64,000 nt of DNA from Chrysomallon squamiferum (lineage: Eukaryota; Animalia; Mollusca). Position 1 is the stretch's first letter; each line of letters starts with the position of its first letter. Under the pieces are notes generated by a model that was not told the origin of the DNA, did no database searches, and saw only the letters and a program-made list of their open reading frames with translations. The stretch covers positions 7,192,001 to 7,256,000 of the forward strand of contig CM022678.1 in assembly GCA_012295275.1 (NCBI GenBank), in the 5' to 3' direction. A program made the position numbers and the translations under genes. Shown piece by piece: positions 51,702 through 63,804 of the stretch.

Positions 51702-53549
51702 ATGCTGGCGAAATTAACAGTGTTCCTTTTCGCTGCGTTCTTGGTCGTCGCTCGTGCCGCCAAATATGACGATGATGATGTCGTAGAAAAGACGAAAAGA
51801 GCAGACGATGACTTCGATGTGAAGGACCTGTCTGAGAAGGATTTGCAAGAAATTATTGAAAATGTTCAGTCAAACCTTAAAAGAACTGTTGGTGAAAATA
51901 ATATCTTTAGTGAAAATGGGAATATTGCATTAAGGGTGATAATAATAATAATAATAATAATAATAATAATAATAATAATAATAATAATAATAATAATAAT
52001 CTAAAAATGGTAAGTTCGGTGTTTGAATGGTAACCGCGTAATTTCGTTGACGCATGCGCTTTAACCAATTTATGCGTTATTCAACAATGCAACAACATTT
52101 CTAGTGGGCATTGGGTGAAATGGGCGTGCTTGCGGGGGCTGGGTGTAGGTGTATTTATATGTGTGGGTGTGTGGATTCAAAATAAATAAATAAATAAATA
52201 AATAGTTGTTTTGTAGACATTAACTACTTTTTACTTTGTTTCATTTTAAACTACGTTTTGCTTCATTTTAGAATGAAGCGCTACTTATAGTTTCACAAGA
52301 AGAAGGGGACTGTGTGTTATTGTTCATAGAAACAATGGAATCGAGTAATAAAATCTGACAGCAATGACCACAGATGGTTAATTTTCCATTATCGATGTCA
52401 AACACTTGATACTTCAAATTGTAACTATAATATTTTCATTCCCAGGAAAGGATTTTTTTTTCTCTCTCTCTCTCTTTCTTTTTCTTTTGTTTTATTTTCT
52501 AAGATCGCATAGCTCCTGGTTTACTGTTTGATACAGAAGCATACGAATTGGTTTCTTTATCAGTAAATGCATATATTTAGACCTTTCCATAAACACTTTA
52601 AGAGATACCGTCACGGAATAAACTTATTTTCGTTAGCGAACGGTGAAAACATATTTATGCCTTCCCGTGGAAAGATGTGTAACTGTACAGAGTTTTCATT
52701 CAGTCTATGTCCGTTATTATCACTGTTCTTACATTCGTGTCGTCCAGTCATATGAACGTAACCAAATTTGTAGTTAATGACAGAGAGTGATGTAAAGCGG
52801 TTGTAGGAGCTAGCTATGTGCTAACGTCAGTGAGGCAAAGATTACTAAGAAAGGGACATAACTGAGGTTTTTTAACGTGTCTCACAGTATGTTCATTTTC
52901 TCATCGCAATCTAAATCATATTTGAAATGTACGATGAGGATGATGATGGTTTAACAACAACAAGAACAACAACAATAATAATGATAATGATGATGATGAT
53001 GATAAAATAAACTATTTTCAATAACGCTAATTCCATTCCATCGTTAAAAAAAAAAAACTGGACATATGCTGAAAACGAAAAAAAAAAAGTAGGGAGAGCC
53101 ATTTCTCTGTACAACCTTCCACTGACAAAAACTGGGTTTTTTTTGTTTTGTTTTGTTTTTGTTGTTTTGTTCGCTTGTTTTTTTTTCTTGTTTTTTTGTT
53201 TTTTTTATGAATTATTATTTTTATTATTATTTTTTTTTTTTTTTATTATTAATTATTATTATTATTATTTATTTATTTTTTTTTATTTATTTATTTATTT
53301 ATTATTATTATTATTATTATTATTATTATTTATTTATTTATTTATTTATTTATTTATTTTTCAGATGAATTAGGAAGCGATGACGTTGAACTTGTTGAAG
53401 ATGAAGACAGTCTCAGTAAACGACTGGTTCGACGTGGCTGGTTTTTCGGAGGTGGTGGCGTTCAGTGGACTAACAGAAGGGGAGATAAGCAGCTGACTAT
53501 TTCGCCAACGCGCGGTGGAGTTAAGGCTGGCTTTACGATCAAGTTCTAG
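51702..53549 (+). CDS. Secreted prepropeptide, copy 8 (divergent clade B); exons 51702-51891 and 53365-53549; 124 aa; mature LVRRGWFFGGGGVQWTNRRGDKQLTISPTRGGVKAGFTIKF
   Basis: Signal peptide, pro motif DVKDLSEKDLQEIIENVQSNLKR, same phase-1 intron. Exon 2 (absent from the ORF track) reads DELGSDDVELVEDEDSLSKR followed by the mature peptide and TAG. TATAAAA at 51653. Confidence 0.88.
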
Positions 53550-54686
53550 AATTTGTGTAATGCTTGCTGTAATTAACTGAAGTTTATAAATATGATAATT
53601 AAATGTTAATTCCTGCATTTTATTTTATTAGTTTTATTGTTAATGCGGCTGCTTTTACAAGGGGTTTGGAATAAACTAATACAATTCTCATATTTAAACA
53701 CGACAATATAACAAAACAGCAACAGTGACATCACCACCAAGAAGAAACGACAAGCACAAATAAATAAATAAATAAATAAATAAATAAATAAATAATAAAT
53801 GAACAAACGAACAAATAATCCCATGGACATACGAACATATTCTGCACTGTATTAATTCCCTATTAATCATTGCAAATGTGTCTGTCTGTGTCATTTATTG
53901 TTAATAGTTGCCCTGAAGACAACACACGTACTTAAAAGGAAATGACAAAATTTTAACAGTTATAAAACAACAGCTGTACAGACCCGAATTGTTTTCTCTC
54001 TCTCTGCTCGTAAAGTAATTTCTCATATATACTGATCAAATGTTACAATACCGCAAAGAACCATAATAAAAGATTTTAAAAACAGCAACAGAAAAAAAAA
54101 AGAAAAAAGAAAAAGACAACAACTATATTTAAACACAGTTTAATGATATAGGTTATAAAATAGACTGGTTTCTTCTTCTTCTTCTTCTTCTTATTATTAT
54201 CATCATCATCATCATCATCATCATCATCATCATTATTATTATTATTATTATTATACTATTGCACTTACTACTATTCCTACTACTATTACTACTCTACTAC
54301 TACTACTACTACTATTACTACTACTACTACTTTTATAAAATAAAATAAAACAAAATAAATAAATAAAATAAAAATAAACATTTTTATTCAATTCCTACGC
54401 GACAAAAATATACAGAGAAACCTCCCAGACTATGCAACCGATCATAAACGAATTACCTTATTTAATTTCCACATCCTGTTCCGGAAACACGTGACTCACA
54501 CTTTACCCGGACTTGTAGGTGCAATCTTAATTAACGATGTTATCACCTTTTCTAAATAAATTTCCAACACCTCTTTGTCAGCAAGTATATATATAGGACA
54601 TGAATTATTCATATTTACACATCTTCTGCAAGAAGCAAGAAAAAAAATCAAACTAAAACAGGCATAAAAAAAAAAAAAATAATAAA

Positions 54687-62676: not shown

Positions 62677-63804
62677 ATGAAGGCAGTATTCATCTTTCTG
62701 GCTGCTGTGGTAGTTCTCGTGGTTAGTGCTCTCCCGCTTTCAGTGGCAGACGATACCGATGACGTCGAGAGAGAAGCAGATGATGATGACGGTGCTGTTG
62801 TTGACATGCGCGACCTCTCTGAAGACGACTTTCGTGAAATTGTTGAACACGTACGAGAAAATCTAAAACGAGCTGCAGGTGAGTTGTCTTGCTGTAGTTA
62901 GAAGTTAAAGGGTTAAACTTTACTCTGAGGTAAAAGGGTTAAAGTAAACAGTGGTGCAAAATAAAAAGATTATCTGAAAAGAACAATACGAATAATAATT
63001 AAGAAAGAATTTATATATTTTTCAGAGCTTTCTCTTTCTGCATATGTTTTCCTGTACAAGATTAATTATTTCCCTCTCGCTCAGTTTTCTCTCTCTCTCT
63101 CTCTCTCTCTCTCTCTCTCTCTCTCTCTCTCTCTCTCTCTCTCTCTCTCTCTCTCTCTCTCTCTCTCTCTCTCTGAGTTTTTCTCTGTATAATATATATA
63201 TCTGTCCTATCTATCTGTCTATGTATATATGTGTGGATGTATCTATTTGTCTGTCTGTCTCTCTGCCTGTGTCTATGTCTATCTATCCATCTGTATCTAC
63301 CTATCAATGTCTATCTATCTATCTATTTATCTACCTATGTATGTATGTATCTATCTATCTCTCTATCTATCTATCTATCTATCTATCTATCTATCTATCT
63401 ATCTACCTATCTATCTAATGTATCTCTAAATCTATCTATATACCTCCCTATCACATTCACTCACTCTCTTTCTCAATCTCGACTCAACATTTTTTTTCAT
63501 CTCTCTAATTCTCATTCCTCTCCGCAATCGCACAGAACATACTGTAACATTTAATTTTATTTGTTATTTTTATTTTTTTATTTTTCAACAAGATGAAATG
63601 ACTGTGAACCACGTAGAGATGATGGACGACGAGTCAAAGCTTCAGAAGAGACTTCTAAACTGGAAAATCAACAACAACTGGTCTGCTGGTATCGGAGGAA
63701 TCACTTGGCAAAACGACAGAAGGAACCTAAAGTTCAACATCAAACCTACGTTCACTGGTTTGAGACCCACCGGCTTCAGAGCCGGTCTTACTTTCAGATT
63801 TTAA
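62677..63804 (+). CDS. Secreted prepropeptide, copy 11 (clade D); exons 62677-62878 and 63593-63804; mature LLNWKINNNWSAGIGGITWQNDRRNLKFNIKPTFTGLRPTGFRAGLTFRF
   Basis: Recent duplicate of copy 10 (3721-bp period), intact frame and splice sites. Confidence 0.9.

Follow-up and report, generated by a model that had tools for sequence, protein, structure and literature searches.

In Gram-negative bacteria, BamA is an essential target that lies exposed at the cell surface. The beta-signal at the C-terminus of outer-membrane proteins (OMPs) has the published consensus G-x-x-aromatic-x-aromatic (PMC13067283), and an older OMP signature places Phe or Trp last and has hydrophobic side chains occupying -3, -5, -7 and -9 (PMC1634882). 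Two groups of bacterial agents are among the known systems closest to the locus described here: the bamabactins, among which dynobactin ends in SYRF and darobactin B in TKRF (PMC13067283), and the L-type pyocins, whose unmodified protein tail blocks strand beta1 of BamA from outside the cell (PMC13463100). The natural beta-signal mimics named in the relevant section of a 2026 review are all bacterial (PMC13067283). Here we analysed a 64,000-nucleotide stretch of DNA from the mollusc Chrysomallon squamiferum (contig CM022678.1, positions 7,192,001 to 7,256,000; hereafter the window), which contains 11 tandem genes for small secreted peptides. Judged by their sequences, these peptides appear to form an unnamed, cross-phylum family of probable defence peptides of the glycine-rich beta-sheet kind, outside the attacin family, with a measurable beta-signal-like end. 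Our tentative reading, to which we give a little less than an even chance, is that they may be antibacterials that engage BamA beta1 as a stalled-substrate mimic. In the mostly open-access literature searched, we found no paper that names the family or describes an animal beta-signal mimic, although supplementary sequence tables could contain members; a full-text search with six family motifs returned one unrelated paper.

The mature peptides end in a beta-signal-like strand

The 11 two-exon genes lie in tandem on the plus strand between positions 24816 and 63804, at a spacing of 2.8-4.3 kb. Each encodes a signal peptide, an acidic propiece (net charge -14 to -18) and a Lys-Arg site, and is interrupted by a phase-1 GT-AG intron of 714-1473 nt. 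The ten in-frame copies yield mature peptides of 41-50 residues with a net charge of +4 to +9 and 12-22% Gly, free of Cys and ending in Phe followed by the stop codon. The copies sort into four clades (1-7, 8, 9 and 10-11). Copies 1-7 are one recent clade, and their 43-residue mature peptides (net +4 to +9) end in [TS]-F-S-W-[RT]-F. The exons are as follows.

24816-25023 and 26012-26202, plus strand, exons of copy 1
28302-28512 and 29315-29505, plus strand, exons of copy 2
32398-32608 and 33430-33620, plus strand, exons of copy 3
36667-36877 and 37731-37921, plus strand, exons of copy 4
40805-41015 and 41874-42064, plus strand, exons of copy 5
45080-45290 and 46134-46324, plus strand, exons of copy 6
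47859-48069 and 49043-49233, plus strand, exons of copy 7
51702-51891, plus strand, copy 8 exon 1, encoding the signal peptide and the acidic propiece
53365-53549, plus strand, copy 8 exon 2, end of the propiece, Lys-Arg and a 41-residue mature peptide (53424-53546) ending in KAGFTIKF-stop
54687-54888, plus strand, copy 9 exon 1
55718-55933, plus strand, copy 9 exon 2, frameshifted as assembled, with RAGFTWRF in the downstream frame
58956-59157, plus strand, copy 10 exon 1, covered by an RNA-library contig that departs from the window sequence at the splice donor
59877-60088, plus strand, copy 10 exon 2, Lys-Arg and a 50-residue mature peptide (59936-60085) ending in RAGLTFRF-stop
62677-62878, plus strand, copy 11 exon 1, with 10 differences from copy 10
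63593-63804, plus strand, copy 11 exon 2, 50-residue mature peptide (63652-63801) ending in RAGLTFRF-stop

The original prediction held that every copy ends in Phe with no amidation Gly. All 11 motifs are present at the expected places on the plus strand with a stop codon directly after them; in copy 9, however, the motif is out of frame, which the prediction had overlooked, and ten products end in this way. Copies 8-11 had further been said to fit the OMP consensus exactly, which holds for copies 10 and 11 and for the downstream frame of copy 9 (G-x-x-aromatic-x-aromatic), whereas copy 8 has Ile at -3 and fits a looser version only. Copies 1-7 do lack the Gly, as predicted, and Thr or Ser stands in its place. 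Across 25 family domains, positions -1, -3, -5, -7 and -9 are hydrophobic and positions -2, -4 and -8 polar. When mature peptides were shuffled (five peptides, 100,000 shuffles each), the strict motif fell at the end in 0.3-0.9% of cases and a relaxed motif, set after the data had been seen, in 0.9-1.6%.

The spliced length of copy 9 is 1 modulo 3, and its frame shifts at about 55790-55802. Because the spliced frame stops at 55872, the product as assembled does not end in RAGFTWRF. The frameshift could represent an allele, an assembly error or a pseudogene; a contig from run X2 aligns 299 letters to the 300 places 55717-56016, with one gap somewhere within, and may mean that another individual carries the copy in frame. 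An RNA-library contig (X1) spans exon 1 of the copy 10/11 clade and departs from the window four letters past the donor, at a point where the starts of the intron (GTGA) and of exon 2 (ATGA) are nearly alike; the X2 contig continues into the intron. The X1 contig is a weak hint of a spliced transcript from this clade. Among the long pieces listed for runs X3 and X4 none lies on the exons, and these runs are uninformative.

Comparison with the ends of E. coli OMPs

The family ends were compared with those of 2866 E. coli K-12 open reading frames (ORFs) of at least 150 residues, called from about 4.0 of 4.64 Mb, using a matrix built solely from the last ten residues of the 18 distinct family ends. 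In this ranking OMPs took ten of the first 12 places and 21 of the first 31. The older OMP signature is present in all 18 distinct family ends and in 23 of the 2866 ORF ends, 18 of which are labelled OMPs. Among the 136 ORFs that end in Phe or Trp, the nine non-terminal matrix columns separate the 38 labelled OMPs with an area under the curve (AUC) of 0.896, a value reached by none of 2000 column shuffles (mean AUC 0.55); the family's own penultimate strand, used as the matrix, gives an AUC of 0.753. In the reverse test, with a matrix of OMP ends, 12 of the 18 family ends outscored the entire set of 2827 non-OMP ends as well as the median of the held-out OMPs, and in 18 of 20 family domains the highest-scoring window was the terminal one. 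The strict Gly motif occurs in six of the 25 family domains, including copies 10 and 11, and in only 15 of 39 labelled E. coli OMPs. The missing Gly of copies 1-7 is no objection, because Gly occurs in only 18 of these 39 OMPs. The likeness is confined to the last strand, with no detectable homology, since a whole-domain profile matched nothing at E < 4 among the 2866 ORFs; a search of the E. coli genome also gave no family candidate.

Parts of this comparison weigh against the BamA reading. Confirmation of the OMP labels was limited to positives, and the candidates were chosen partly by rank and from general knowledge of OMPs. Shuffles that kept the in/out alternation reached 0.896 in 33 of 2000 cases, and because their mean AUC is already 0.813 the match is mostly generic amphipathic alternation. 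Tyr occupies -3 in 17 of the 39 labelled OMPs and in none of the 25 family domains, where the residue is Trp, Phe or Ile. Position -2 is Arg in most family members and Lys or Arg in 12 of the 39 OMPs; a PhoE end peptide with Lys at -2 is reported to have failed to open E. coli Omp85 (PMC1634882), although a later survey disputes the importance of this position (PMC3582582). Overall, the match between family and OMP ends is real and consists mostly of alternation and the terminal aromatic residue, with a modest position-specific surplus.

The residue at -3 bears on a different and improbable account, in which the peptide end would be read by the PDZ domain of DegS, by BamD or by chaperones, so that sigmaE is switched on and porin synthesis goes down while BamA is not blocked. 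Attacin lowers OMP synthesis, which would fit this account. DegS reads a C-terminal YxF motif (PMC1634882, PMC3582582) and BamD recognises beta-signals (PMC13067283), both of which would suit periplasmic sensing. Set against it are the absence of Tyr at -3 throughout the family domains, the conservation of a ten-residue strand and hairpin that a three-residue PDZ ligand leaves unexplained, and the requirement that the peptide first cross the outer membrane.

Relatives in three animal phyla

Searching 1.84 billion representatives with a profile of nine exon-2 translations gave 14 proteins at E <= 0.001. The domain is carried by 11 of these, and two more proteins were obtained by word-based search, giving 13 homologs in all; the profile hits P0009, P0013 and P0014 were discarded as unrelated repeats or long proteins. 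Because the word-based searches had low sensitivity (the exon-1, domain and full-length alignments gave 0, 9 and 4 hits), the range of the family is a lower bound. A metagenome scan returned only the contig of P0012. Homologs come from Gigantopelta aegis, Littorina saxatilis, Lineus longissimus (three proteins) and, among the named sources, also a Branchiostoma hybrid; they are annotated throughout as uncharacterised or hypothetical proteins, and the family thus spans three animal phyla (molluscs, a nemertean and a cephalochordate). The precursor from G. aegis is organised like those of the window copies and is 45-55% identical to them; copy 9 lies among the shortest tree paths to it. The other homologs have different prodomains, often long and helical, and share the domain of about 40 residues after a basic site.

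Ten of the 13 homologs stop at Phe or Trp, two add Lys-Lys and one (Branchiostoma, with two internal repeats) continues with Arg; an amidation Gly follows the terminal aromatic in none. Carboxypeptidases trim C-terminal basic residues of processed peptides, and such trimming would free the aromatic end of the three homologs in which Lys or Arg follows it. Trp replaces the terminal Phe once in the family, and OMPs accept either as the last residue (PMC1634882). The profile favours motif-bearing hits but cannot place the motif at the end of a protein, and its terminal position is therefore independent evidence. The beta-signal likeness first proposed from this array has been borne out as real and measurable, in the ranking of E. 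coli ORF ends, and as conserved far outside the window, in the 13 homologs.

Some homologs have distinct architectures. P0002 (Branchiostoma) is a polyprotein in which the domain occurs twice; the two copies are identical and not cationic, and Arg and a spacer come after each. A helical prodomain of about 200 residues, matching no Pfam family, precedes the domain in P0003, P0007, P0012, P0017, P0005 and P0015 (Lineus and Littorina types) and could shield the amphipathic sheet; a model of the Lineus prodomain is helical and of only middling confidence, with a predicted local distance difference test score (pLDDT) of 61.6. P0012 and P0017 add Ser/Gly/Phe-rich repeats ahead of the domain.

Predicted fold and remote similarity

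AlphaFold2 run on 20 domains (pLDDT 88.7) predicts a five-stranded sheet in which three short strands are followed by a hairpin of membrane-spanning length, with 10-11 strictly alternating residues per strand; the strands predicted for copy 10 cover residues 4-7, 10-13, 16-20, 26-35 and 38-48. Neither of two models matched anything by Foldseek at E <= 0.001. The top Foldseek probability was for the anchor of the Hia trimeric autotransporter (probability 0.85, E 2.0, root-mean-square deviation (rmsd) 2.0, 35 columns). VIA fold neighbours included NalP, CdiB and OmpA at Z 5.5-5.9, the best being NalP (Z 5.9, rmsd 2.4, 49 aligned), in an arrangement that is common and also occurs in phage coat proteins. 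A search of solved structures by sequence gave no match (best E 0.096). The fold neighbours, like the ESM Atlas results below, serve as leads only. By sequence comparison, the family has no significant homology to OMPs or attacins.

The Pfam family YadA_anchor (PF03895) was found below threshold in five of 20 domains (best E 0.0026); the two alignments shown end on the last profile position, and copies 6 and 7 scored 16.1 and 16.7 bits, short of the gathering score of 22.7 bits. In the ESM Atlas, copy 10 fell near small clusters of OMP fragments, with recognition below threshold, and weak rows were returned for Ail/Lom, Phage_OMP and YadA_anchor. Such likenesses might be expected if the domain had come by horizontal transfer from a bacterial or phage OMP gene, its beta-signal kept as a relic. 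We regard this origin as very improbable: no bacterial OMP is present among the 14 profile hits, the whole-domain profile found nothing in E. coli, no true relative was found in GTDB contigs (the sole locus is a 14-residue match in non-coding sequence or the opposite frame) or in plasmids (hits at E >= 0.9), and a useless relic would not persist across three phyla. Separately, Atlas clusters without a name, made up of proteins of 40-57 residues and in part viral or carrying Phage_OMP, reach 0.91-0.93 with the mature peptide, and there may be small beta-signal mimics in phages.

Similarity to attacins and diptericins had been raised in the original prediction as an alternative. It receives slight support from the G. 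aegis domain, to which the four clusters named as closest in the Atlas by language-model features belong to Attacin_C, Gloverin, an unnamed fly group and Diptericin, at 0.80-0.82, a level that one third of shuffled proteins reach, and none from Pfam: Attacin_C (PF03769), PF03768 and Gloverin (PF10793) matched none of 20 domains at E <= 1 and none of nine proteins at E <= 10. An attacin-like disruptor would insert its amphipathic sheet by itself and probably oligomerise into a small beta-barrel or carpet, with Phe as an interface anchor and the OMP likeness arising by convergence or, possibly, from a remote common origin with attacin, diptericin and gloverin. One attacin has a five-stranded amphipathic sheet, OMP and phage-coat fold neighbours and a predicted 12-stranded trimer, and was measured to disrupt bilayers of outer-membrane vesicles directly (PMC10690985). 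The prominence of alternation in the OMP match and the Hia result agree with this account, which also best explains the conservation of the whole sheet and the attacin likeness. We regard it as the main rival, though somewhat less probable than the BamA reading, for no more than two of the five predicted strands have the length to span a membrane, the domains of Branchiostoma lack a cationic character, the Pfam attacin families are unmatched, and a pore has no obvious need of a free, unamidated aromatic end in every lineage. The attacin bilayers were made from native vesicles in which BamA would be present, so that the experiment leaves room for a contribution from the machinery for beta-barrel assembly (BAM). 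The two readings are compatible, and attacin-type peptides could themselves use BAM.

Proposed engagement of BamA

The step from beta-signal likeness to BamA inhibition is one that we infer. We favour BamA as the target because it best accounts for a free aromatic end that persists while charge, prodomain and phylum differ; charge itself is not conserved (core net charge -1 to +11 across the family domains), which argues against plain cationic lysis. The family ends of the form [ST]-[WF]-R-F resemble those of dynobactin and darobactin B. By analogy with established processing, a convertase would cut at the Lys-Arg site, until which the acidic propiece would keep the peptide soluble and inactive. 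Basic residues would then carry the peptide through the lipopolysaccharide layer, and the pre-formed hairpin would offer its last strand and the free Phe carboxyl to BamA beta1 in the manner of a nascent OMP. Since a barrel could not be completed with the other three strands, which are too short, the complex would be trapped at an early stage of folding, and OMP assembly would stall. In a variant with the same first step, the peptide would be released from BamA into an oligomeric barrel.

Besides the caveats of the OMP comparison and the attacin parallels, several points weigh against this proposal. An N-terminal Trp, Gly and Pro-Thr motif is conserved as strongly as the domain end, and the whole sheet matters. 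Linear beta-signal peptides are reported to bind less well than macrocycles (PMC13067283), and free pyocin tail peptides did not restore killing (PMC13463100). That the peptides are probably antibacterial is read from precursor architecture and array evolution only, and a promoter scan upstream of the copies found no shared kB, STAT or IRF site.

Array evolution, processing sites and neighbouring genes

In copies 1-7 (2-7 for exon 1), the ratio of nonsynonymous to synonymous differences (pN/pS) rises from 0.17 in exon 1 through 0.38 in the propiece part of exon 2 to 0.92 in the mature peptide, with 0.66 for the last ten codons, and a value near 1 is no proof of positive selection. Faster change in the mature part is the usual pattern for immune effectors. 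Gly at -10, Phe at -5, Ser at -4, Trp at -3 and Phe at -1 never vary among these copies, and a patchwork of shared variants suggests gene conversion.

A function other than defence, as a self-assembling beta-sheet peptide of mucus, adhesive or cuticle or as a signalling peptide, would make the alternation of the edge strand structural. Precursors with a signal peptide, propiece and dibasic site are also typical of signalling peptides, anionic members exist in the family, no common immune promoter motif was found in the array, and the antibacterial activity of the family is itself a prediction. We consider such a function unlikely, as the 11-copy tandem expansion into four divergent clades, the faster change of the mature part, the strongly acidic propiece paired with cationic cargo and the lack of amidation fit immune effectors better.

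A second Lys-Arg (LKR) closes exon 1 in all copies (e.g., 59143-59151 and 62864-62872), and processing at the two sites could also free the conserved acidic peptide of about 20 residues lying between them. Copies 2, 3, 5 and 6 have an extra Lys-Arg three residues into the mature peptide (e.g., 29374-29385) and may be trimmed to a Gly-Trp start. Spacers of the array repeatedly contain a short tandem repeat (about 36 nt), at 50917-51147 and in comparable stretches between copies 1-7. The window is AT-rich, with a GC content of about 24-36% per 2 kb; that of G. aegis is higher, at 37.22% (PMC7895826). The array is preceded by minus-strand exons (3552-12846) of a gene for acyl-CoA oxidase (ACOX), with one exon matching Pfam ACOX, and, directly upstream, by exons of a DM10-domain ciliary gene of the EFHC1/Rib72 type on the plus strand (13346-21465). 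The latter gene can serve as a marker for locating the array in other molluscs.

Comparison with known systems

Were the BamA proposal correct, the peptides would be animal-encoded BAM inhibitors, a specific protein target would be added to innate immunity, a simple and synthesisable linear-hairpin scaffold would be at hand, and the unclear mechanism of attacin-type peptides would become directly testable. Even without a BamA target, they represent an unnamed peptide family common to molluscs, a nemertean and amphioxus. A broader version, which we consider possible with somewhat more reserve, is that these defence peptides are an old animal family, found in protostomes and in a chordate, that imitates the beta-signal of OMPs and, like darobactin, blocks BamA, with insect attacins and diptericins perhaps larger members of the same mechanistic class. 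The closest named relative, G. aegis, is a vent snail with gammaproteobacterial endosymbionts (PMC7895826), and one may guess that the expansion of the array could serve symbiont control.

With insect attacins, diptericins and gloverins, the family has in common secreted, Cys-free, Gly-rich precursors, a predicted five-stranded amphipathic sheet with OMP-like fold neighbours, and the nearest Atlas clusters. It differs in matching none of their Pfam families, in having a domain of only about 40 residues and in prodomains that are long and acidic or helical. Insects are the reported source of PF03769 (PMC7924397), whereas the present family comes from molluscs, a nemertean and a cephalochordate. 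The trimeric autotransporter anchor (YadA_anchor, Hia) is likewise a small sheet ending in a beta-signal; the likeness is weak in both sequence and fold, with copy 7 at 16.7 against 22.7 bits, and the family has no neck helix or passenger and is encoded by an animal, intron-bearing gene.

The bamabactins share an aromatic-x-Phe or Lys-Arg-Phe end with a free carboxyl, and BamA beta1 as the proposed site (PMC13067283). They are bacterial, macrocyclised 7-10-mers, whereas the family consists of animal, linear 40-50-mers in which the hairpin would give rigidity; macrocyclisation by a bacterial maturase is not the case here, given two-exon animal genes, peptides of 41-50 residues and ACOX and DM10-domain genes as the identified neighbours. 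The L-type pyocins of Pseudomonas also use an unmodified C-terminal tail, which blocks BamA beta1 by beta-augmentation from outside; they are bacterial proteins whose lectin domains grip loop 6 of BamA and which have His in the aromatic slot (PMC13463100), whereas the present family is without such a targeting domain.

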